Assembly (NCBI GenBank): GCA_947624375.1
Contig: CANQKD010000008.1
Span: forward strand, 1 to 64,000
Reading direction: 5' to 3'
Length of the DNA stretch: 64,000 nucleotides
From: an uncultured Clostridia bacterium
Lineage (GTDB): Bacteria; Bacillota; Clostridia; Oscillospirales; Ruminococcaceae
The notes under the pieces: model-generated
The model's input: the letters and a program-made list of their open reading frames with translations, nothing else
Told to the model about the DNA's origin: nothing
Databases searched by the model: none
Translations under genes and position numbers: made by a program
Shown: piece after piece, positions 20 to 54,047 of the stretch
Layout of the letters: each line of letters starts with the position of its first letter
How positions within the stretch are numbered: position 1 is the first letter of the stretch

Positions 20-540
20 CTAGGGAACGCACAGCTGCTAGAGGTTAGAGGTAAGAAGTTAGAGGTTAGAAACGGTTGTGCTCATTTTGAGCAAAGCCGT
101 TCTTTCTGCGGTTTATATCCAGAGGCAAGAAGCAAGAATTTGCTTATATATAGCTTTGCGCTAACTTATCAAAATGCTCGTCTTGCCTCTTGCTTCTAAT
201 CATCTTGCTTCTAATACCTACCCACCACTTTAACAACAGAAAGAATATAGCTGTAAGAATATTCTGCCAGCTATATTCTTTGTGGCGGATTGTGGGAGGG
301 ATATATTCTATTTCAATAATAATCTTATAATTAGCAGTACAGATAAGCCCTAATTTCTTGCCTCTTGCCTCTAGTTTTCTTGCTTCTGATACCCACAAAC
401 CACCCAACTTAAAAGAAATTTGATAGAAGAATATTCTGCCGACGAACTTCTTTGGGAGGCTAGGGTGAGGGGATTAGATTTAAGATTATTAGAGGTAAAA
501 TGTGCGGTATTTTCGCTTCGTTTGGCGTTCCATAATGGAA
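20..540. repeat. Mosaic intergenic repeat locus 1. It holds purine-rich 'agagg(c/t)(a/t)agaag' motifs in both orientations (38-76, 121-137, rc 181-213, rc 351-392) and two ~90-nt units of a 'ccaccc...gaagaatattctgc...ttctttg...gggagggtgagggg' hairpin element (214-305, 392-475)
   Basis: Read directly from the sequence. The same motifs recur at 42358-42840. Unit 1 has nested palindromes: agaatatagctg / cagctatattct around the self-palindromic agaatattct. Confidence 0.6.
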
Positions 541-4955: not shown

Positions 4956-6251
4956 ATGTCAGACAAGCCCATGCACCTAAGCAGAGGGCTTGTATTTATT
5001 TTAAGGGAGGAAAGCGGCGTGGCTTACAGCGAGCTTATAAAGAATTTTGAGAAAATACGCAGCTACATGAGGGATTTTTATGTTTACGGCTTTAAGAGCC
5101 GCGACGACTATACCCAGAAAAGCGCGCGTTCATATGACGACGAGCGCCGCAGGATAGAGAGCTGGCTGGGCGACTGCATGGGCTTTCGGCAGACATCGGG
5201 CGGCAAAAACGTTTTTATATCTATAGACAGCCGACTGCAAAGGAGCAATCCGCTTTACAGAGCGTGGAAATCATGCAGCTTTACAGACGGCGATATAACG
5301 CTGCATTTTTTTATATTTGATATTCTTTATTCGCCCGAGGTCAGATGCTCTATGGCTGAAATTCACGAGGGCATAGAAAAGCGGCAGCAGCTGTTTTTGC
5401 AGGCAAGAGTGTTCGATGAATCCACCATACGCAAAAAGCTCAAGGAGTACGAAGCGCAAGGTATTGTAAAAAAAGAAAAAGTCGGTCATACGGTGCTTTA
5501 CAGCCGCTGTGAGAGCTGCGACTTTGACTTTCCCGATGCGCTTATGTTCTTCTCCGAGATCGCCCCGTGCGGCGTTATAGGCTCTTTTCTGCTGGATAAG
5601 CTGCCCACGATGCAAACGCCTTTTGCATTCAAGCACCATTATATTACCCATACTCTTGACAGCGATATTCTTTGCAGCCTGTTTGACGCCATAGACCGCC
5701 GATGCAGCGTTACGCTCGAGGTGCTAAACAGAAGAAAAACGCCGTTCACCATAACCACACTGCCGCTGAAGATATTTATAAGCGTGCAAAACGGCAGGCA
5801 GTACCTTATGTCTTACAGCGAGTATAACGGCAGGATTTTTTCCACAAGGCTTGATAATATTTTGTCCGTCAAGCCAGGCGATGTGTGCGAAAATTTTGAA
5901 GAGCACAGACAAAAGCTCGAAGATATGCAGCAGAATCTGTGGGGCGTAAGCACGGGCAGAGGCGGCAAAGTGCATATCGAGTTCACCGTGCGCTGCGTAA
6001 AAGGCGAGGAGTATATATTTGACAGAATGATGCGCGAAAAACGCTGCGGCAATGTTGTGCGGCTCGATGAAAACACCTGCCGCTTTTCAGCAGATGTTTA
6101 CGATGCAGGCGAGCTGGTGCCGTGGATACGCACGTTCATCTGCCGCATAACCCAGCTGAAATGCACGAATGAAGAAATAGTGCAGAGATTCAAAGAAGAC
6201 TTACAGCAGATGTACCGCCTTTACGGCATAAAAGAGGAGGCGCTCGTATGA
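4956..6251 (+). CDS. Putative transcriptional regulator: N-terminal winged HTH, central WYL-like domain and C-terminal WCX-like extension (paralogue A of a pair)
   Basis: 431 aa. The domain order resembles PafB/PafC, BrxR and CapW-type WYL regulators. Its stop overlaps the next gene's start (ATGA), so the two are translationally coupled. Confidence 0.5.
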   Translation: MSDKPMHLSRGLVFILREESGVAYSELIKNFEKIRSYMRDFYVYGFKSRDDYTQKSARSYDDERRRIESWLGDCMGFRQTSGGKNVFISIDSRLQRSNPLYRAWKSCSFTDGDITLHFFIFDILYSPEVRCSMAEIHEGIEKRQQLFLQARVFDESTIRKKLKEYEAQGIVKKEKVGHTVLYSRCESCDFDFPDALMFFSEIAPCGVIGSFLLDKLPTMQTPFAFKHHYITHTLDSDILCSLFDAIDRRCSVTLEVLNRRKTPFTITTLPLKIFISVQNGRQYLMSYSEYNGRIFSTRLDNILSVKPGDVCENFEEHRQKLEDMQQNLWGVSTGRGGKVHIEFTVRCVKGEEYIFDRMMREKRCGNVVRLDENTCRFSADVYDAGELVPWIRTFICRITQLKCTNEEIVQRFKEDLQQMYRLYGIKEEALV

Positions 6252-8730: not shown

Positions 8731-8981
8731 CAAAGCATTTTGCCATAGTTTAATATACCTTCCCTTCTTTGCCTTGCCCGATACCCCCCCTTCGGGCAGG
8801 GCGCTTTTTTGTATATCTGAACGCGTTATCACTTTAGCAGAATGATTATTTGCACAAAAGCGCTTGCAATTTTTGAAAAAGTATGTTACAATATATACAA
8901 CATGAAGTATTTATTTGTTTAAAGAATGAATTATTTCATACACAAAGGCAACAGACAGCCGTGCAGACAGGTGGGGATAAT

Positions 8982-15737: not shown

Positions 15738-18700
15738 TTACTCATCATCATTTTCCGATGCGTTTTTATTACCGTCATCTGATTTTTCTGAGGCTGCAAT
15801 ATCTCCCGATGCTGTGTAGATGCTGTTAAGCAGTTCTAACACACGGATGAACAGGGGATCGTTCTTTATTTCCGGTTTTTCAATAATGGCAATTTCTTTT
15901 TCAAAGCAACGTTTTACAGCGGCAATATCACCTTGCTTTAAAAAGCTCACGATCAGACCTGTAAAGCATATACAAAAACTATTGCAGCAAAGATCAAGCG
16001 CCACCTTGTTTATATTAGAGTCCTCATGTTCTGCCAGTTTCTCCCTGATGGGAATTTCCTTTTCATATAATTCTACTGCGTAAGCGTAGTCTTCCTGCTT
16101 TTGGCAGATGTCGCCAAGATCTCTGTAGCAATCAGCAAGTTTTTTCAGGTTATCGCCGTGATCATCATTTTCTGCCTTTTTTTCTAAAATGGCAATTGCT
16201 TTTTCAAAACAGATCTTAGCCTCGCCGTAGTCTTTCGTTTCTTTGCAGATGCTGCCAAGCACGCTTAACACAGTGATGTACATTGGCTTGTTCTTTATTT
16301 CCGGTTTTTCAATAATGGCAATTTCTTTTTCAAAGCAACGTTTTACAGCGGCAATATCACCTTGCTTTAAAAAGCTCACGATCAGACCTGTAAAGCATAT
16401 ACAAAAACTATTGCAGCAAAGATCAAGCGCCACCTTGTTTATATTAGAGTCCTCATGTTCTGCCAGTTTCTCCCTGATGGGAATTTCCTTTTCATATAAT
16501 TCTACTGCGTAAGCGTAGTCTTCCTGCTTTTGGCAGATGTCGCCAAGATCTCTGTAGCAATCAGCAAGTTTTTTCAGGTTATCGCCGTGATCATCATTTT
16601 CTGCCTTTTTTTCTAAAATGGCAATTGCTTTTTCAAAACAGATCTTAGCCTCGCCGTAGTCTTTCGTTTCTTTGCAGATGCTGCCAAGCACGCTTAACAC
16701 AGTGATGTACATTGGCTTGTTCTTTATTGCCGGTTTTTCAATAATGGCAATTTCTTTTTCATAGCAATTTTTTGCAGCAGCAAGATCACCTTGCTTTACA
16801 AAGCGTATGAGCAGACTAGTAAAGCATAAACAAAAACTATTGCAGCAAAGATCAAGTGCCACCTTGTTTATATAAGGGCCCTCATGTTCTGCCAGTTTTT
16901 CTCTGATGGGAATTTCTTTTTTATATAATTCTACTGCGTAAGCGTAGTCTTCCTGCTTTTGGCAGATGTCGCCAAGATCTCTGTAACAATCAGCAAGTAC
17001 TTTCAGCATTGCATCAGGATCATCAGGTCCCGCTAGTTTTTCTAAAATGGCAATAGCTTTTTCATATCGGTCTTTAGCAGTTATGTAGTCTTCCTGCTTT
17101 TTGCAGATGTCGCCAAGATCGCTGTAACAAACAGCGATATTTTTCTGTGTCTCGTCAGAATCATCATGCTCAGCCAGCCTTTCTAAAATGGCAAGCGCTT
17201 TTTCATAACGTTCTTCAGCGGTGAAGTAGTCTTGTTGTTTTTTGCTGACGTCACCAAGATCGCTGTAACAAACGGCGATATCTCTTTGTATATCGTCAGG
17301 ATCATAATGCTTTGCCGGTTTCTCTAAATATTTAAGCGCTAGTTTATACGATTCTTCAGCGTAGTCGTATTCTTTGTATTTTTTGTAGTACATCTGGGCA
17401 TTACCAACAAGTCGGTAACAAAGAGAGACTGCTTTTTGCGCATATTCACGCTCGTCATCTTTTTTTGATAGTTTTTTTGGAGCTTTGTCAAACCAAATTT
17501 CCGCTGCCCAAATATAGCCTTTTCTCACGCAAATGATACCGATCTCGTAAGCAGTTTTAAAATCATCGTTCAGATGTGAAGTGTCTAAGTTTTCTGTTTT
17601 TGCTATGTCTTCTAAGGTGGATCCTTTTTCTCTTAAAATTGCTTTGCTCTGTAAAAATTCTTTGCCAAGAGATCCATAGGTCATATCCAGAGACTCGATC
17701 CATTCTTTTGCACCAGCAATATCGCCCTGCCTGTCACAGTCGTCGGCATGCCTGAAACAACGTGTAACAAACTTTTCAAAGTGTTTTTCCTCGATCAGCT
17801 TATCGGTTGCAACAGCCTTTTCAAAATAGACTTTTGCAGCGTCATTATCGCCCAGCTTGTGACAGAACACATAAAGCTTTACATAAGTTTCAGAAAGCGT
17901 GAAAAATGACATCTCGGAATTTTTTTCTTCTGCCTCTTTTTCTCTGACTGTGACTACTTTTTCATACCATACTCTGGCATTTGAAATATCTCCGTTCTTC
18001 TCATGAAAATCACCGATATCACTGTACAAATAATAAAACCGATCATTTGCCTTGTCAACATCTTCGGTCGCAGCCAGTTTTTCAGTAGCTTCGGCAGCTC
18101 TTTCATACCACATTATTGCCATGGGCAGATCTTCAAGATGTTTTCGCCAAAAATCGCCGGAAAAATTATAGATGCTATACAGTTCGCGGTATTCTTCAGC
18201 AGTGCCGATATGATCCGGCAGTTTTTCTTTGACCTTGAATGCTTTTTCTGACCACTCTATTGATTCCTGCGTTTTGTTAAGCTGTAAATAAGAAAAGCTT
18301 ATATCTAACAGCGTCTTGAAAAGATGATTTTCAAACCAATCATCAGAAAACCGCTTCATCAGTTCTTCTAAAACAGCAAGTTCTTTTTTGTATAGTTCCA
18401 GCGCATCCCACCAATTTGCATAAATTATTTCCCAATAATCCCATGTTTGTGTGGTATCTGATGCCCATTGACGGTAATCGAGCATCCATTGTCTTGCATC
18501 GCTTTCTGCCCCTGTTTTTTTGTACTGCTCTTCTCTGAGCTGCACAAGGCGTTTTTGCCATTTGATAGCATTCGGGAAATCACGCTCAACGCCCTCGCCT
18601 TCATGATATAAACTTGCCAGCTTTGAAATTGCTTCGGGCAGGTCTTGCTCTGCTGCGGCGGTTATCATCTTCACGGCACGTTCACGGTCTACCTCAACAT

Positions 18701-19643
18701 CTATTCCCGAAAGATATGCCAGCCCTATAAAAAACAGGTGCTGAGGGTCGTTGTTTTCTGTGCTTTCAAGCCCTAGCGCCTGTCTGACAGTCTCGGCGAT
18801 GCATTTCGGGTCACCTGCTGATATGGGCGAGGGTATATCTTTATACTTCTCCTGCAGAGCTTGTTTATCGGTTTCTACAAGTTCTACCGGCATAACGGGC
18901 TTTTGGCTTCTGGCAGCCTCTGGGTATTCCGTCGTCATCACATAGTTGTTGTCTTCCAGCAGATTCGGCGTTACCGCAAGAGCAAAAAGTTCGCTTTTTT
19001 TCATTGCTTCTTCTATTGCCTCGTTAAAGTTTTCGCCCGGCACAAGAAATTCATCATACCATATAGCGATATCGCGGCAAAAATCATTGCTGTGTATCAG
19101 CCGCATAAGCTTCTGCGCATATTCTCTGTCTTTTTTGCGGTAGCTGAGAAACACATATGCATCAAATGCAGCACGTATTTTTTCGATCATTTCATCGCCT
19201 ATAAGCACCGAATCAAGATATTGCTTCAGCTTGTATTCATAGCTTATCTGTGTGCGGTCATGAGAGTTTCGGTTCAGCATTTGCAGATCGCCGCATTTTT
19301 TGTTGAACGCCTCTTCAATATCGCTGTCTTCCTGTATTGGCAGCACGGGGATATGAAGTTTCTGTGCTTTTCTGAACACCTCAGAAAACGCAAAGGTATC
19401 CTGCTTGACAAAATTTGTGGTCACAACAAGCACTATCAGCTGCATGGATCTCAGGTCGCCTTTAAATGTTTTCATGTCCTCGGGGCGCTCGGGGTCGGGG
19501 TCATAAAACACGGCGCAGTTGCTGAATTTCAGCAGGTCGTCGGCTATTTCGTGCAAATACTTTTCAAATCCTGCGCTGTGACCGGTCACATACACTTTGG
19601 GTATGCCCTGCGCACTTATGCCTTTTCTGGTTATATACTGCAT
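15738..19643 (-). CDS. 1301-aa protein: an N-terminal TIR-like domain, a canonical TIR domain (AYVFLSYRKKD...IAIWYDEF), Sel1-like repeats, and then a long TPR array of more than 25 repeats that contains three in-frame 143-aa tandem units
   Basis: The TIR-domain call comes from motifs seen directly (VFLSYR, WYDE..L.PGE, a SELFALAVTPN βD-like strand). The Sel1 repeat is LAYLSGIDVEVDRERAVKMITAAAEQ. The gene is monocistronic and flanked by terminators. Confidence 0.8.
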   Translation of the reverse strand: MQYITRKGISAQGIPKVYVTGHSAGFEKYLHEIADDLLKFSNCAVFYDPDPERPEDMKTFKGDLRSMQLIVLVVTTNFVKQDTFAFSEVFRKAQKLHIPVLPIQEDSDIEEAFNKKCGDLQMLNRNSHDRTQISYEYKLKQYLDSVLIGDEMIEKIRAAFDAYVFLSYRKKDREYAQKLMRLIHSNDFCRDIAIWYDEFLVPGENFNEAIEEAMKKSELFALAVTPNLLEDNNYVMTTEYPEAARSQKPVMPVELVETDKQALQEKYKDIPSPISAGDPKCIAETVRQALGLESTENNDPQHLFFIGLAYLSGIDVEVDRERAVKMITAAAEQDLPEAISKLASLYHEGEGVERDFPNAIKWQKRLVQLREEQYKKTGAESDARQWMLDYRQWASDTTQTWDYWEIIYANWWDALELYKKELAVLEELMKRFSDDWFENHLFKTLLDISFSYLQLNKTQESIEWSEKAFKVKEKLPDHIGTAEEYRELYSIYNFSGDFWRKHLEDLPMAIMWYERAAEATEKLAATEDVDKANDRFYYLYSDIGDFHEKNGDISNARVWYEKVVTVREKEAEEKNSEMSFFTLSETYVKLYVFCHKLGDNDAAKVYFEKAVATDKLIEEKHFEKFVTRCFRHADDCDRQGDIAGAKEWIESLDMTYGSLGKEFLQSKAILREKGSTLEDIAKTENLDTSHLNDDFKTAYEIGIICVRKGYIWAAEIWFDKAPKKLSKKDDEREYAQKAVSLCYRLVGNAQMYYKKYKEYDYAEESYKLALKYLEKPAKHYDPDDIQRDIAVCYSDLGDVSKKQQDYFTAEERYEKALAILERLAEHDDSDETQKNIAVCYSDLGDICKKQEDYITAKDRYEKAIAILEKLAGPDDPDAMLKVLADCYRDLGDICQKQEDYAYAVELYKKEIPIREKLAEHEGPYINKVALDLCCNSFCLCFTSLLIRFVKQGDLAAAKNCYEKEIAIIEKPAIKNKPMYITVLSVLGSICKETKDYGEAKICFEKAIAILEKKAENDDHGDNLKKLADCYRDLGDICQKQEDYAYAVELYEKEIPIREKLAEHEDSNINKVALDLCCNSFCICFTGLIVSFLKQGDIAAVKRCFEKEIAIIEKPEIKNKPMYITVLSVLGSICKETKDYGEAKICFEKAIAILEKKAENDDHGDNLKKLADCYRDLGDICQKQEDYAYAVELYEKEIPIREKLAEHEDSNINKVALDLCCNSFCICFTGLIVSFLKQGDIAAVKRCFEKEIAIIEKPEIKNDPLFIRVLELLNSIYTASGDIAASEKSDDGNKNASENDDE
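15861..17147. repeat. Three tandem 429-bp (143-codon) repeats inside the TIR-TPR gene. Units 15861-16289 and 16290-16718 are essentially identical; unit 3 (16719-17147) is diverged
   Basis: Shown by direct comparison of the sequence. The antisense ORFs 15820-16083 and 16243-16512 are mirror artefacts of these repeats. Confidence 0.85.
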
Positions 19644-22985: not shown

Positions 22986-23131
22986 ATGTATTACCTCTGT
23001 AAAAATTTTTCTATATAATTATAATTATATCACCGCACCGTGCAAAATGCAACATAAATTTGTTTCTCTTGACATTATAAAAACAGGGTGATATAATTAT
23101 ATCAAATATTCAAGACGAAGAGGTGTTGTTT

Positions 23132-28326: not shown

Positions 28327-28500
28327 AAGCTGCTTTTGCACGTAATAATGTCGCTGCTTTCGCAGCAAGCCTGCGGAGCTGTTCGACGACCCACCAAAGT
28401 TGCCTCGCCAAAACGGAAAAGTTTTCGGTCAAGCCTTTTTCAAAAGGCTTGCGGGGAGTGGGGCAGCGCCCCACAAGGACACAGCGTGCGCTCCGAAAAA

Positions 28501-29005
28501 GGTGAATTGTGAAATAGTCCGGTGGACTATTTCACAAGAGGAAAATCCCTGCAAGAGAGGGATTTTCCTGTGAGAAGTTATCGCTCTCTTGTCGCGTTCC
28601 AGAATGGAACGCCGTGCTGTATGTGAAGTTTTAGCTGGCTCATAGGCGCAAACTTTTAACAATGCTGTTGCGCACGCAAGCGCGCGCAGAAAATATAGTC
28701 GGGTCTTTTCAAAGGGAACGCCCTCTCTTGCATGGGCGTAGCGTTCCCTTTGGGAACGCCTGAAGAATTATTTCGCCGCAAAAACTAAAAGCGAAATAAT
28801 TCTTCCCTCGCGGTCGTTTACGACCGCTACACCCATTTGCGGAGCGCCTGCCGCGTTTTCGGGGGCTCTGCCCCCATACCCCCGTGACCCTTTTGAAAAA
28901 GGGTCAATCGAAAACTTTTATTTTCTTGACAAGGCTTAAAACTTTAGTGTACTGGGGAGCGTTGAACAGCTCCACAGGCTGCGCGTAAGCGCAACTATTA
29001 CACTT
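28501..29005. repeat. Palindromic-unit block A, copy 2, in the convergent intergenic region. Positions 28501-28570 are the exact reverse complement of 564-633. Additional hairpin modules occupy 28586-28830. The direct-orientation module 28833-29005 matches 634-895
   Basis: Read directly from the sequence. There are many perfect hairpins, for example gaagaattatttcgc...gcgaaataattcttc and gcggtcgtttacgaccgc. Confidence 0.65.
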
Positions 29006-33280: not shown

Positions 33281-33449
33281 TCAATAATACCTCCATCTTG
33301 AGTATAAGAATATCGTCATATCGTCAGATAGAATAATTATAACATATTTTTTATAAAAATGGAAGAGCTTTTGAACAACTTTTTTCAAGAAATTTTAATA
33401 TATAAAGATTTCCTGCAAAAAATATAGTGTAAAGAAAAGCTCTTTCCCT

Positions 33450-33484
33450 TGATTTTTACTGTATGATGTGTTATAATTACCATT
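33450..33484 (+). promoter_or_regulatory. Sigma-A type promoter for rnpB: TTGATT, 17 nt, TATAAT
   Basis: Near-consensus hexamers lie 6-8 nt upstream of the predicted P1 start. Confidence 0.6.
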
Positions 33485-33489
33485 GTGAG

Positions 33490-33838
33490 TATGTGAGCAG
33501 ACTATGCGATAGCGTAAACGTTTAGTTTATGAGGAAAGTCCGGGCATCACAGAGCAGGGTAGCTGATAACGTCAGCCGAGGGTGACCTCAGAGCAAGTGC
33601 AACAGAGATATACCGCCGCTTTATGCGGTAAGGGTGGAAAGGTGCGGTAAGAGCGCACCGGACGGCATGAGAATGCCGTGCCATGTAAACCTTACCCGAT
33701 GCAACTCCAATGGTAGGCAGAAAGCCAATGTCTGCTCGGCAGGCTGATGCCTATAGGGGGCTGGAGCCTTGCGGCGACGCAGGGCGCAGATAGATTATCG
33801 CACACGACAGAACCCGGCTTATCGGTCTGGTCACAGCA
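33490..33838 (+). ncRNA. rnpB: RNase P RNA, bacterial type A
   Basis: P4 strands GAGGAAAGUCCGGGC and ACAGAACCCGGCUUA. Internal segments AGGGUAGCUGAUAACGUCAGCC..., GUGCAACAGAGA, GGUAAGGGUGGAAAGGUGCGGUAAGAGCGCACC and UGUAAACC align with E. coli M1 RNA. P1 pairs ~33490-33510 with ~33818-33838. Confidence 0.85.
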
Positions 33839-39299: not shown

Positions 39300-42281
39300 T
39301 TAGTGTTTCACGCTGTCTTTTTCGTCAAGTATCTTGCTAAGCTCCGATACCGTCTCCATAGGCGCGGTGCCGTCAGCGATCATATCAAGCATATGCGGCA
39401 CAATTGTCGGGTCAAGCTGGCTGCCGCTCACGCGCTTCAGCTCTTCGGTTATTGCCTCTTGTGTAAGCGCCTTGCGGTAGCACCTTGTGCTGCTCATAGC
39501 ATCGTATGTATCTGCTACACCTATAATACGCGCCTCAAGCGGTATTTCCTCACCAGCCAGCTTTTCGCAGTAGCCGTTGCCGTCAAAGCGCTCGTGGTGG
39601 TAGCGCGCCCCCTGCGAAATGCCGTCTATCGCCGTGAAATTCTCAAGTATCTTGCCGCCGATAGCAGGGTGAGTGCGTATTATGTCCATTTCCTCGTCGG
39701 TAAGCTTGCCCGGCTTTGTAAGAATGTTATCCGGTACGCCTATTTTGCCTATGTCGTGCAGAAGCGCAATGTAGTATATCCTCTCCTGCTCAGCCGCCGA
39801 AAGCCCCATTCTTCGTGATAACTCACGCGAGTATGCCGCAACTCTCAGCGAGTGACCCGTGGTGTACTTGTCTTTTGCATCTATAGTTTCCGCGAATGTC
39901 TTCAGTGACTGCTCAACTATCTTTTTGTATGCTTCCTGTCTGTGCCGTGCAGCCCTCAGCCGCGCCGCCGCGATTATCGAGATTATCACCGCAACAACTA
40001 TCAGCATCAGCACAACTATCAGTATCCAGAAAAGCGGATATTCCCTCAGCCGCTTTGTTTTGTTCACCGTCATCGTGTAGACCTGTGCATTGTCGGGGTC
40101 TTCGGTCGAATATACCCTTACAACAAATCTGTATTCGCCGCCCGGCAGGTTGGTGTAGCTTACAATATCACTGTTAGAGCCCGTCAGCACGGTCTCGCTG
40201 TCTTCAAAGCCTTCAAGACGGTAAGCTACGGTAAAATCGCTTCCGCCAACGTATGAAAGCGCCGCAAAATCTATCGTTATACGCTGCGCACCGCCGGGGA
40301 TAGTCATCTCTTTCGGCTGCTCGTATACCTTGCCGTCGACTGTCACGCTGTTTATTGCTATCCTCGGCAGATCTGCGCTTGCCTCCTCAAAGCCGAAAAC
40401 GCTAATGCCGTGCCGCGTAGAAATATATAGTTTTCCGTCCTCGTCGGTGTAGTTCCATGTGTTAGCGTTGAGCGAGCCCGTAAGTCCGCTGTCAAAACTG
40501 TATACCGAGCTTTTTGCAGTCTCACCGCTCAGAAGCTGCTGTTTGTCAAGCGCAATAAGACCGTTGTTTTGCAATAGCCACAGCTTTCCGCCGCGGTCTA
40601 CAAAATCAAAAATGCTGCCTGCGCCTTTCAGAAAATTCTCCAGCTTGCGAAACTCTTTTTTATCCCAGTAGTACAGGTTGCTGCCCGCGCTTACAAAATA
40701 GCCGTCGCCGTCCTCCTCGGGTATCATTCGCAGAACAACGCCTTCTTCCAGCTTCTGCTCAAAACCGTAGTTGGTTATCTTGCCGTCTTTAAGAGCATAA
40801 ATTCCGCCGCCGTCGCTGCCCATGTAAAGCGTGCCGTCCTTGTCCTGAGCCAGACACAGTATCGCAGAGACCGTCAGCCCGTCCTTCGATTCGTAGCTTT
40901 CATAAGCTTCGCCGTCCTTTATTATGTTTACGCCCTCCTGCGTTGCCACCGCGTATGAGCCGTCAGAGAGCTGTATAACCATTCTGACGCGGTTGCTTAT
41001 CAAGCCGTTTTCGGTGTTGTATGTCGTGATGTCGCCGCTTTCCGGCTCGTACTTCACCAGCCCGAAGTCAGAGTATGTAGATATCCATACATCCCCCGAA
41101 CTGTCGGTCATTATGTGCCTTATCCTTATGCCGTCAAGCATCTGCGTAAGGCCGTTTTGTATGGCATTTCCGCCGCCGTCAACAATAGAAATGCCGTTGT
41201 CGTGCGCCGCGTATATGTTGCCGTCCGCCTTTGTGACAGCATTTATTGCAATATCAGAGATACCCTCTCCGCCAAGCGCAGAAATGCAGCCCACGGTGTA
41301 CTTTATTGCACCGTATGTAGAAGATGCGAACCATATGTTTCCCTCATAGTCTATCACCGCATCATTTGTCGGCAGTGACTGCTCAGTGTCGTCAAGCATA
41401 AGTATCCTGCCGTCTTGATCCATTACCGCAAACCCGTGTTCACCGCATATAACTATCCTGCCGTCAGGGGCTATCTCAATGCTGTTGTGGGTGACTATCG
41501 GGTAGGCAGAGTAAACCTTTGTAACGTAATTTCCGCCCTCGTCAAACGTCAGCACCGCCACCTTGTCTTCCGAAGAACCAAGATAGATTCTGCCGTCTTT
41601 GTCGGACGCCACGCAGTATATCTCAGCCGTTTCAAAAATATCTGTCGGGTCAAGAATTTTTTCAGCAGCGCCGTTTGATACCACCGCGCACTTGCCCGAG
41701 TTCATAGCAGCCCATACTCTGCCCAGAGGGTCGCACGCTATAGAATACACCGTCTCGCCTGCAAGCCCCTCGCCCGAGTATACCTTTATTTCACCGTCTG
41801 CGATCTCGCCAATGCCCGAAGTTGAAGCTATGTAAATCCTGCCGTCCTTGTCCTCGGCAAAATCTCTTATGCATAAAAATGAGTAGTCCCCCGGGCTCTT
41901 TATCGTGCTGAACGAGCCGTTTTCATACAGATAAACGCCTGCATCGTTGGTGCCTATCCACAGCCTGCCCTTGCTGTCCTCAAAAAGCGAGCGTATTGAA
42001 GACGACGAAACAGAGCCGTCGGTGCTGTAATTGCGGAAATTGCTGCCGTCGTAGCGTATAAGTCCGCCGTAGCTGCCTATCCATATGTAGCCGTCGGAAG
42101 TTTGCAAAACAGTGTTCGCCTCGCCAGTGGGCAAGCCATTTTGTTCGTTGTATATGGTCTTTACGTATGTGGTGTCAGCGTCCGCGCGAGTAAAACCGCC
42201 ACAGTCTGTGAAAATTATGCACAAAGACAAACACACAGCCGCCGCAGCAGCGGTCAGCCGCCTGAGTATTGAAACGTTCAT
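39300..42281 (-). CDS. Sensor protein: signal peptide, periplasmic two-component-regulator-propeller (Y_Y_Y-type) repeats, one TM helix and a cytoplasmic HD-GYP phosphodiesterase domain
   Basis: Start set at MNVSILRR (RBS GGAGG). The periplasmic region has repeated GxxxGLxxYDG motifs. TM is LFWILIVVLMLIVVAVIISIIAAA. HD-GYP motifs are HDIGKIGVPD and HHERFDGNGYC, the latter being a GYP-to-GYC variant. Confidence 0.8.
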   Translation of the reverse strand: MNVSILRRLTAAAAAVCLSLCIIFTDCGGFTRADADTTYVKTIYNEQNGLPTGEANTVLQTSDGYIWIGSYGGLIRYDGSNFRNYSTDGSVSSSSIRSLFEDSKGRLWIGTNDAGVYLYENGSFSTIKSPGDYSFLCIRDFAEDKDGRIYIASTSGIGEIADGEIKVYSGEGLAGETVYSIACDPLGRVWAAMNSGKCAVVSNGAAEKILDPTDIFETAEIYCVASDKDGRIYLGSSEDKVAVLTFDEGGNYVTKVYSAYPIVTHNSIEIAPDGRIVICGEHGFAVMDQDGRILMLDDTEQSLPTNDAVIDYEGNIWFASSTYGAIKYTVGCISALGGEGISDIAINAVTKADGNIYAAHDNGISIVDGGGNAIQNGLTQMLDGIRIRHIMTDSSGDVWISTYSDFGLVKYEPESGDITTYNTENGLISNRVRMVIQLSDGSYAVATQEGVNIIKDGEAYESYESKDGLTVSAILCLAQDKDGTLYMGSDGGGIYALKDGKITNYGFEQKLEEGVVLRMIPEEDGDGYFVSAGSNLYYWDKKEFRKLENFLKGAGSIFDFVDRGGKLWLLQNNGLIALDKQQLLSGETAKSSVYSFDSGLTGSLNANTWNYTDEDGKLYISTRHGISVFGFEEASADLPRIAINSVTVDGKVYEQPKEMTIPGGAQRITIDFAALSYVGGSDFTVAYRLEGFEDSETVLTGSNSDIVSYTNLPGGEYRFVVRVYSTEDPDNAQVYTMTVNKTKRLREYPLFWILIVVLMLIVVAVIISIIAAARLRAARHRQEAYKKIVEQSLKTFAETIDAKDKYTTGHSLRVAAYSRELSRRMGLSAAEQERIYYIALLHDIGKIGVPDNILTKPGKLTDEEMDIIRTHPAIGGKILENFTAIDGISQGARYHHERFDGNGYCEKLAGEEIPLEARIIGVADTYDAMSSTRCYRKALTQEAITEELKRVSGSQLDPTIVPHMLDMIADGTAPMETVSELSKILDEKDSVKH

Positions 42282-42357
42282 TATGTTCCTCCGTTCGTAA
42301 TGAGCGAAAATTTCTGTATAAATTATAGCACAAAACGCCCGGCAAGTCAATATAGAT

Positions 42358-42840
42358 GCAAGAAGTAAGAGGTCAGAAGTCAGAAATGTTTATTACGAGC
42401 TTTGCGGCAGTTTTTCATACCTGCGGTTTACAAGAGGCAAGAATGCGCCCCACAGCCTCTGTTCACCGCTCCACATTCTCTGCTTCTCTCTAAAACTCCG
42501 TGCCACCCCCTACATCACTAGAAGAATATACTGTCAGTCGCATTTCTTTGAATGTCCGCAGGGTGGGGGATAGTATTTATTATTTTAGAACAACTAAGTA
42601 TAAGCGGTGAACGCGCTCCTGCGCCGCGCGTAAGCGCAAACCAACAACAGCTGACCGCCGTACTTTTCCGCGCCCCTCACCCAGATAATAGCACATTTCC
42701 CCTCACGTCACCGGAAGAATATTCTGCTAACGCACTTTTTTGAAGACGTGTGGAGGGTGGGGGATAGTATTTATTATTTTAGAACAACTAAGTATAAGCG
42801 GTGAACGCGCTCCTGCGCCGCGCGTAAGCGCAATAAAAAA
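42358..42840. repeat. Mosaic repeat locus 3. Purine-rich agaggcaagaa motifs (42358-42450) are followed by a ~195-bp tandem duplication (42519-42638 and 42712-42833) of the 'gaagaatattctgc...gggtggggg' element, which includes an exact 80-nt duplicate
   Basis: The 80-nt core agggtgggggatagtatttattattttagaacaactaagtataagcggtgaacgcgctcctgcgccgcgcgtaagcgcaa occurs at 42559-42638 and 42754-42833. Confidence 0.7.
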
Positions 42841-42866
42841 GACCCGTGGGGGTCTCTTGATTCATT
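42841..42866 (-). terminator. Intrinsic terminator downstream of tRNA-Arg
   Basis: On the minus strand, gagacccccacgggtc is followed by TTTTTT. Confidence 0.6.
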
Positions 42867-42987
42867 AAAAGCAAAAGTTATTGATAACGTCCATTATTCA
42901 CTGAGCCTTTGCACAAAATTATTTTCACGGGAACAAAAAAGGGACACATCGCTCTGTGTCCCGAAATTGGGTGCAGCGTCACGCTGC

Positions 42988-43064
42988 TGGTGCGCCAGAA
43001 GGGATTCGAACCCCCGACCTTTTGGTTCGTAGCCAAACACTCTATCCAACTGAGCTACTGGCGC
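42988..43064 (-). tRNA. tRNA-Arg (anticodon ACG) with encoded CCA
   Basis: The reverse complement folds as a cloverleaf: GCGCCAG acceptor, AGCUCAGUUGGAUAGAGU D-arm, anticodon loop CUACGAA and GGUUCGAAUCC T-arm. Confidence 0.9.
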
Positions 43065-45474: not shown

Positions 45475-45718
45475 AAAAAAACCTCCTGTATGTCTTTTTA
45501 AAAATGTTCATAAATATATTATAACGTATCTTTCTGAAAATTGCAATCCTTTCAGAAGATTTTTTTGTGATAAATTTCTAATATACGACAAATAATTTTG
45601 TACAAGTTTGTTATTTCTTTTATTTAAAAAGCTATTGAAATTTTCAGCAGACTGTGTTATAATCTTATAGTAAACCATATTTAATAGATGAATTTAAACA
45701 ATGTTTGGAGGAAAATTT

Positions 45719-53940: not shown

Positions 53941-54047
53941 TTTTGTACATAAGCACAATAGGTGTAAACCTCTCATTTGCTCTTGCAAAATGCCGCGCCC
54001 TGTGTTATAATAGGTATGACAAAATTTTTGCAAAGGGTGTTTTTAAT

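Follow-up and report, generated by a model that had tools for sequence, protein, structure and literature searches.

An apparently lineage-specific family of palindromic intergenic repeats, with half-units reassorting at a conserved apex, in uncultured gut Clostridia

Abundant palindromic repeats between genes have been studied extensively in Proteobacteria and Neisseria, and are poorly documented in Clostridia. Repetitive extragenic palindromic (REP) sequences and bacterial interspersed mosaic elements (BIMEs) are short, multi-copy extragenic palindromes that act as sites of duplication and join-points of rearrangement and can form hairpins in single-stranded DNA or mRNA, while pneumococcal BOX and RUP elements and bcr1 of Bacillus cereus are modular, foldable intergenic elements of ~100–150 bp that can terminate or affect the expression of neighboring genes. 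REPINs consist of two conserved REP arms around a less conserved spacer, with frequent compensatory changes (PMC3116915). In the intergenic mosaic elements of Neisseria (NIMEs), a 20-bp inverted repeat, dRS3, separates diverse RS segments in dynamic arrays that have been proposed as recombination substrates, and the same genus carries Correia elements, intergenic repeats that resemble miniature inverted-repeat transposable elements (MITEs) (PMC1797815). Here we describe a family of palindromic repeats, four units of which lie in a 64-kb stretch (the window) at the start of contig CANQKD010000008.1 from an uncultured Clostridia bacterium. The family appears to be undescribed so far, yet of a known kind of bacterial intergenic repeat, and it seems to be neither a new regulatory RNA nor the boundary of a genomic island. 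We consider it probable, with moderate confidence, that this is a lineage-specific repeat family acting at the DNA level, organized as a REP/BIME- or NIME-like mosaic in which the core of the unit serves as a recombination joint.

An initial annotation of the window had proposed four units of ~90 nt, and all four are present on the + strand, where they are the sole window matches of a whole-unit profile hidden Markov model (E 1e-10 to 2e-16):

217–312, + strand: unit A, with the 20-mer apex CTGTAAGAATATTCTGCCAG at 251–270 (profile E=8e-15).
390–480, + strand: unit B, with the apex ATAGAAGAATATTCTGCCGA at 423–442 (profile E=1e-10; fold z=-1.4, not significant).
42485–42580, + strand: unit C, with the apex CTAGAAGAATATACTGTCAG, which carries two substitutions, at 42518–42537 (profile E=8e-12).
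42674–42775, + strand: unit D, with the apex CCGGAAGAATATTCTGCTAA at 42711–42730 (profile E=2e-16; fold z=-0.8).

Common to the four units are a near-palindromic apex (CTGG-A-AGAATATTCT-G-CCAG) and a T-tract; in each, the 5' half is poor in G and rich in C and A, and the 3' half is poor in C and rich in G and T. The C-rich 5' arm, T-rich box, and G-rich 3' arm of the original description are all seen. The core GAAGAATATTCTGC occurs at 254, 426, 42521, and 42714, on the + strand in every case (allowing up to two mismatches), and its search across the window returned 7 matches, palindromic double hits included, against 0.77 expected; the G-rich 12-mer by itself is not above chance (4 matches vs. 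2.2 expected). The palindrome and the TTCTTTG box had been attributed to every unit, but the core of unit C reads AGAATATACT, and unit D reads TTTTTTG at the position of the box. Unit A is unique among the window units in its long near-perfect stem (AAGAATATAGCTG/CAGCTATATTCTT; inverted repeat at 237–284), and is the only one of the four with a significant fold (-35.5 kcal/mol, z=-6.7), while unit C forms no stable hairpin (z=+0.75).

The distribution of the family was determined with a pattern scan (GAAGAATATTCTGC-N6-12-TTYTTTG) of one genome per species across 185,579 species. The scan returned 32 stretches, and the family architecture was confined to four metagenome-assembled genomes of "uncultured Clostridia" from rabbit gut (Lapin-002_bin94, -023_bin13, -018_bin88, and -027_bin31), on several contigs in each; the other matches were single, coding-looking, from unrelated phyla, and without the family flanks. 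A profile search located 41 units in 188 kb, comprising the window and the related loci (8-kb stretches around seeded matches, cited here by L-numbers) and covering the species of the window and the four rabbit-gut species, and the figure of 41 is the count in those stretches, not a per-genome copy number. Eight of these units have diverged cores (e.g., GGAAGTATATTCTGCC, GGATGAATATTCTGCC, and GGAAGAATATTCCGCC), and the ATACTG core variant of unit C is found again in L030. At the Rfam gathering threshold, only RNase P and tRNA pass in the window; permissive Rfam scans of both window repeat loci gave sub-threshold chance matches only, and 109 kb of related loci (13 loci) gave none. The consensus 20-mer has no match in IMG/VR and seven in the JGI metagenomes, all of them unrelated, apparently coding, and without family flanks. 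BLASTN of both window loci against plasmids and phages found no match, and a full-text literature search for AGAATATTCT returned primers and unrelated sequences only. As far as these collections show, the family is confined to one group of uncultured gut Clostridia.

The aligned consensus of the unit is CC.CC.AAAA..CA...C..C....A.G..GCTGG AAGAATATTCTG CCAGC...TTTTTTTT..GGG.G..TTGTGGG.GGG....TATT. The 20-bp apex is nearly palindromic and carries a fixed A/G asymmetry; as a hairpin, it folds as CUGG / A·G mismatch / AGA-AUAU-UCU / CCAG. Counted from the core start, G falls to 5–11% at positions -60 to -13 and C to 5–10% at +24 to +59, and the extent of this skew in base composition sets the unit span at ~120 nt; family-wide, units measure roughly 100–120 bp. 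The apex appears invariant, and the arms are ~41% identical between copies. Because the mean folding z is -1.9 and 16 of 35 units fall below -2, with many copies that do not fold, the palindrome is a property of the family, many copies of which have decayed.

The two halves of a unit have unlinked histories. Over 703 unit pairs, left- and right-flank identities show a correlation of only r=0.11; no pair is at least 80% identical on both flanks, and in six pairs one flank is at least 80% identical and the other below 55%. In ungapped comparisons, several of these breakpoints lie within a few bases of the core, and one unit (L007, position 1758) joins the left half of the unit at 1196 to the right half of that at 1390. 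Given these unlinked histories and the breakpoints at the core, what is inherited or moved is not the whole unit; half-units and neighboring modules reassort, with the apex as the favored joint.

Units C and D illustrate the same pattern with a different switch point. The element and its 80-nt downstream core had been described as an exact tandem duplication with a ~195-bp period, but only the 80 nt are identical, in two copies:

42560–42639, + strand: 80-nt module, copy 1, made up of unit C's G-rich arm, an AT-rich segment, and a GC-rich mini-hairpin (GCGC-GTAA-GCGC); its identity to copy 2 is 100%.
42754–42833, + strand: 80-nt module, copy 2, beginning within the G-rich arm of unit D.

Outside the module, the ~114 nt left in each 194-nt period, among them the apex and 5' arm of C and D, are ~46% identical, and Tandem Repeats Finder (TRF) calls no 194-nt repeat at this locus. 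The C/D pair is 86% identical over the scored right flank and 100% identical from the G-rich arm on, and its left sides are unrelated; the switch point lies in the G-rich arm. Relatives of the 80-nt module occur in L002 and L030, in either orientation.

Rearrangement is also seen where orthologous regions can be compared. Contigs that encode an identical Spo0A have three different arrangements downstream of this gene: two units, as in the window (L003); one inverted unit, with ~340 nt of other modules missing (L001); and no unit, with the GC-rich part of the 80-nt module present in inverted form (L002). The orthologous arrays L007 and L013, from two species, lie between PGA_cap and zinc-ribbon genes and are ~90% identical at both ends, while their interiors are rearranged, such that homology ends at the first core and restarts at the last core. 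At the HD-GYP sensor gene that neighbors units C and D, three further contigs are identical to the window, and two end inside the repeats.

Several additional observations were made at these loci. L002 (ERZ27060014 NODE_520) and L001 (NODE_51) come from one sample and share their identical 258-aa Spo0A, with different genes on both sides. L007 and L013 each carry two additional, diverged copies of the final ~30 nt of the PGA_cap gene that lies upstream, stop codon included (L007:920–952, 1487–1510, and 1850–1876; L013:5090–5116, 5378–5414, and 6070–6106), and the original bidirectional terminator of the gene follows the last copy; this suggests that the array grew through duplications that took in the end of the PGA_cap gene. 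L037 and L038, which are independent assemblies, end 527 and 162 nt upstream of the HD-GYP start, inside the repeats, consistent with a fragmentation of short-read assemblies by the repeats.

Among described systems, neisserial NIME arrays appear most closely comparable to the Clostridia family in their behavior. Both have a conserved 20-bp inverted-repeat core between many families of variable segments of ~50–200 bp, both cluster in intergenic arrays with other repeats and an occasional insertion sequence, and in both the number of array repeats varies between strains and species. The family thus resembles NIME arrays by its organization, a likeness of working that does not establish common descent; dRS3 (ATTCCC-N8-GGGAAT) and the Clostridia core (CTGGAAGAATATTCTGCCAG) have no sequence relation, the host here is a Gram-positive anaerobe, and the Clostridia units have a strong C-rich/G-rich flank asymmetry as well as a T-tract. 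Furthermore, the NIME core is an integration site for phage and IS110 elements, whereas in the Clostridia loci examined one IS110 element lies beside units (in L015) and no phage or IS110 element was seen inside a core. With REP sequences and BIMEs, the family shares many short extragenic palindromes at the 3' ends of genes, in mosaics with linker motifs. It differs from REPINs in that the apex is conserved, the arms are variable, and covariation is lacking, which is the reverse pattern, and from REP sequences and REPINs in that it has no GTAG-type 5' motif and its arrays are direct and not alternating. No REP-associated tyrosine transposase (RAYT; Y1 HUH) gene was found among the 30 open reading frames (ORFs) that adjoin units or the ~20 window ORFs scanned. 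Like BOX/RUP, bcr1, and Correia elements, the units are intergenic, foldable, and modular at a size of ~100–150 bp; those elements have defined ends or inverted repeats, some target duplications, and copies that can be aligned end to end, whereas copies of the Clostridia family have only the apex and base composition in common, and no ends or duplications were found.

The 30 adjoining ORFs are almost all housekeeping genes, and include those encoding ArgS, an aminotransferase, Pth, GlnA, RecR, Maf, DapF, Jag, a TsaD-family protein, a NifH-like protein, and an ANTAR regulator. In a manual tally of ORF maps, the intergenic regions with units were convergent in 6 of 13 independent scorable loci, tandem in five, and divergent in two. 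Units occur in either orientation relative to neighboring genes, singly or in same-orientation arrays of 5–6 with a spacing of 140–260 nt (L007, L013, and L030); a replication-strand bias was considered and rejected, there being no consistent relation to local GC skew. Intrinsic terminators offer a further likeness, as consensus units have an apex-closed, GC-rich stem with a T-tract 2–8 nt later (e.g., GCCGCTGG-AAGAATATTCTG-CCAGCGGC-TCTTTTTTGG), although ordinary terminators have no common 12-nt loop sequence, skewed flanking arms, or arrays. A crude definition of the terminator form (hairpin dG of -7 or below, with at least five T among the 9 nt that follow) fits 11 of 31 core-pattern sites giving a hairpin when read on the unit strand, vs. 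2 of 31 when read on the opposite one. It fits none of the four window units, and a tool scan of both loci flagged none of them.

Under the reading of a DNA-level mosaic family, units would collect where an insertion does least harm, namely downstream of genes and above all in the gaps between convergent ones, and together with other short modules (purine heptamer arrays and GC-rich mini-hairpins) they give rise to mosaic intergenic regions. These regions turn over fast by recombination, with the conserved apex as the commonest joint. The exchange is most simply explained as driven by homology or by hairpins, via unequal crossing-over, via ectopic gene conversion, or via a template switch at the one perfectly conserved 16–20-mer, and a dedicated recombinase would be a less likely driver. 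The roughly one third of units with the terminator form may serve the upstream gene as a terminator or 3'-end hairpin; the four window copies are without this form and are probably passive. Several points weigh against this reading. Most copies were found via the exact core, such that the invariance of the core is partly ascertainment, and when orthologous pairs are compared the core shows no stronger conservation than its flanks. No mobilizing enzyme, target-site duplication, or empty site was found in the related loci or in the strain and species comparisons. The persistence of the G-poor/C-poor asymmetry in diverged halves hints at selection beyond passive decay, and a terminator function is a prediction from the consensus copies, one that excludes the window copies.

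With this family, an uncultured gut lineage is seen to carry mosaic, fast-rearranging intergenic arrays that break metagenome assemblies and create strain-level variation beside core genes such as spo0A. Such arrays could supply terminators or recombination hot spots and offer markers for strain typing, and, if a dedicated enzyme exists, they would represent a second, independent example of NIME-type organization.

The two repeat loci of the window lie among the following features:

900–1676, - strand: spo0A, the 3' flank of which holds units A and B; its own hairpin/T-run terminators lie at ~775–835.
33494–33837: RNase P RNA (Rfam match).
39300–42281, - strand: HD-GYP sensor gene (Pfam and exact-protein look-up).
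42322–42350, - strand: predicted promoter of the HD-GYP gene, of the sigma-70 type (TTGACT-17-TATAAT, TG-extended).
42988–43064, - strand: tRNA-Arg(ACG), with a terminator at 42962–42941 (- strand) and a second hairpin plus T-run at ~42854–42832.

Units A and B are located downstream of spo0A and before a convergent CotH-like gene, the latter seen in contig L001. Units C and D have the HD-GYP gene on one side and the tRNA-Arg terminators on the other, both on the strand opposite to the units. As first described, repeats occupy this region (42282–42940) from the HD-GYP start at 42281 to the tRNA-Arg terminator. All of the repeats here lie upstream of the predicted HD-GYP promoter, and units C and D are therefore not in the HD-GYP leader. 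The 41 kb between the two loci had been viewed as a bracketed block containing most of the accessory-looking genes. This interval holds spo0A, a release factor, RNase P RNA, phosphofructokinase (PFK), and other core genes; it is an ordinary Clostridia chromosome, and thus not an accessory island. The window genes include LiaF-like, LytTR, and CotJC genes near spo0A, and those for an EAL/GGDEF protein, the peptide release factor, a radical-SAM enzyme, PFK, cation efflux, and the HD-GYP sensor, followed after tRNA-Arg by a low-molecular-weight phosphatase, QueT, and fructose-bisphosphate aldolase. A genomic island boundary, with the repeats as att sites at a tRNA gene, was likewise rejected, given the core genes inside and the presence of these repeats at numerous unrelated core loci; the ~20 window ORFs scanned include no integrase.

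The units had also been interpreted as a transcribed structured RNA or riboregulator, a lack of compensatory base changes in the paired arms being named as one refuting outcome. No such changes were found. RNAalifold retained a 4-bp invariant apical stem alone, with 0 compensatory pairs. In a covariation test on an ungapped, core-anchored alignment of 39 units, with column-preserving shuffles as the control, the 11-pair apical helix is 76.0% paired vs. 74.6% in the shuffles, and its covariation score was equaled by 44 of 500 shuffles. Duplexes formed by a unit's own arms are about as stable as those formed with the arms of other units, both for the inner arms (-8.8 vs. -7.8 kcal/mol, p=0.09) and for the outer arms (-15.3 vs. 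-15.9 kcal/mol, p=0.66); because foreign arms pair equally well, the complementarity of the arms is a generic product of C/A-rich vs. G/T-rich composition. The same comparison of own and foreign arms gives no support to a pseudoknot or alternative pairing (A-run/T-run vs. C-arm/G-arm). Mismatches are about equally often G:T (31) and A:C (34), and neither strand is therefore favored as RNA, while the + strand folds marginally better than the - strand (p=0.04). A structured regulatory RNA is thus not supported, and the results favor a repeat that acts at the DNA level.

A more specific form of the RNA interpretation holds that each unit is a small RNA (sRNA) gene or cis-acting riboregulator with a C-rich 5' seed and an apical hairpin plus U-tract as terminator, and that the arrays are "sibling" sRNAs. 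Firmicute sRNAs have C-rich single-stranded motifs and a terminator-like 3' hairpin, and the units resemble them in both respects; the array spacing of 140–260 nt fits the size of an sRNA gene, the T-tract is on the 3' side only, and the slightly better folding of the + strand points the same way. We nonetheless regard this as quite unlikely, given the lack of covariation and of any G:U excess, the many unfolded copies, the occurrence in either orientation relative to genes, the lack of an Rfam match, and the location of C and D, which lie on the other strand from the HD-GYP gene and upstream of its promoter; in addition, no + strand promoter-like site is present at either window repeat locus or before the array units.

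A dedicated site-specific recombinase or transposase that uses the apex as its crossover site, with the ~150–250-bp segments between apices as exchangeable non-coding cassettes, would be akin to dRS3 within the NIME arrays of Neisseria, or to the action of an HUH/Y1 enzyme on a hairpin. The apex is laid out like a recombinase core site, with 7-bp inverted arms (CTGGAAG/CTGCCAG) around AATATT, and the same-orientation arrays, the reassortment of half-units with breakpoints at core edges, the swapping of orthologous array interiors between two cores, and the IS110-family transposase beside two units in L015 are all in accord with such an enzyme. However, breakpoints at a conserved 16–20-mer are also predicted by homology-driven exchange, and some breakpoints are off the core (in the G-rich arm for C/D; in other modules, where the L001/L002 replacements end). 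The 30 neighboring ORFs contain no recombinase save the one IS110 element, which is not in a core and has no copy elsewhere, and we judge this explanation to be unlikely. A low probability is also given to a variant in which the apex would be a bona fide site-specific site in NIME-like cassette arrays and the asymmetry of the halves would be selected, for example as bidirectional Rho-loading/terminator insulators between convergent genes. The miniature mobile element of the initial annotation was borne out as a dispersed, multi-copy, intergenic family of several species, and not in the terminal inverted repeats, target-site duplications, and near-identical full-length copies that would mark it as one. 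A classical MITE would carry terminal inverted repeats and, as a non-autonomous transposon, would depend on a transposase from another place in the genome to move it in one piece; the ~100-nt palindromic, dispersed intergenic copies, a subfamily of ~80–85% identity at L015, L022, and L030 of one genome, and C-rich/G-rich ends usable as inverted repeats are compatible with this. That origin is quite improbable, since no pair is at least 80% identical on both sides and the halves are uncorrelated, the edges of similarity vary between related copies and take in neighboring modules, the complementarity of the arms is generic composition, and the strain and species comparisons (a limited sample) contained no target-site duplication or clean empty site. 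Lastly, the palindrome AGAATATTCT could be the operator to which a dimeric DNA-binding regulator or a nucleoid protein attaches, with the units as its binding sites, as the near-perfect 20-bp dyad is the best conserved part of the unit. We find this very improbable: most sites are at gene 3' ends or between convergent genes and not at promoters, and arrays of 5–6 sites with ~100 nt of skewed sequence are unexpected for an operator. We know of no Firmicute operator consensus that the apex resembles.

The IS110-family transposase gene (DEDD_Tnp_IS110 and Transposase_20 domains; L015, 1411–2574, - strand) is the only mobile gene found beside the units. It is not inserted in a core and has no second copy in the related loci examined, and as a single copy outside any core it was rejected as the mobilizing enzyme. 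Downstream of it, L015:830–1250 contains three tandem repeats of ~140 nt with ~77% identity, each with ...TTATTATACACCAAA.... Integron attC, CRISPR, and dif/Xer sites were set aside for want of the sequence features known for such sites. In the case of attC, there are no R boxes (RYYYAAC ... GTTRRRY), the outer ends are C-rich/G-rich, and the spacing of 140–260 nt leaves no room for an ORF; no integrase was found among the unit-neighboring ORFs.

Other repeat modules are co-resident with the units. The purine motifs reported in both orientations were confirmed: AGAGGYWAGAAG has 10 matches in the window vs. 1 expected, on both strands and only at the two repeat loci. TRF resolves these motifs as heptamer tandem repeats (TAGAGGT x4.6 at 39–70; AGAAGTC x3.6 at 42361–42385), and in the window they occur as follows:

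38–139, + strand: separate co-resident composite of a TAGAGGT heptamer array, a variable hairpin, CTGCGG, and AGAGGCAAGAAGCAAGAA.
179–215, - strand: copies of the purine-rich motif AGAGGCAAGA..., directly 5' of unit A.
354–392, - strand: copies of the purine-rich motif, directly 5' of unit B; a direct repeat of 181–228.
42354–42444, + strand: second occurrence of the composite (heptamer-hairpin-AGAGGCAAGAA), on the 5' side of unit C.

The composite, of ~105 nt, comprises five TAGAGGT-like heptamers, a variable hairpin of ~25 nt, TTTCTGCGGTTYA, and AGARGCAAGARGCAAGAA, and is conserved in seven copies from four species, including L015:462–578, L022:4530–4650, L001:5995–6112 (- strand), L002:6212–6330 (- strand), and L030:3045–3172 (- strand). 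It has no fixed orientation relative to the units. A role for the purine motifs as outer inverted arms of the units was rejected, as all four combinations of orientation and side occur. The composite presents UAG/AAG every 7 nt, reminiscent of the sites of multimeric RNA-binding proteins, and it is a better candidate for a structured RNA than the units.

The GC-rich mini-hairpin (GCGCTCCTGCGCCGCGCGTAAGCGCAA-like; GCGC-GNRA-GCGC) is found in the window at 42612–42639, 42806–42833, and 866–893, and in either orientation in L002, L030, L015, and L022; one copy directly follows the spo0A stop codon. A third mosaic intergenic locus of the window (28417–28577 and 28880–28958) shares modules with 561–758, including a 99-nt inverted repeat of 95% identity and repeats of 65 and 79 nt with 83–89% identity, and has no AAGAATATTCTG unit.

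Sigma-70-type promoters (TTGACA-N17-TGTTATAAT) precede different genes of the window at 8860–8892, 23065–23097, 33445–33477, 45631–45663, 53979–54011, and other positions; the window repeat set that they make up is simply a group of strong promoters of this type and not a mobile repeat. The ORF at 15738–19643 (- strand; 1301 aa) encodes a TIR domain and many TPR repeats, and its DNA contains tandem repeats of 429 and 141 nt, some of which are 100% identical, which suggests a recent repeat expansion in a putative defense-like protein.

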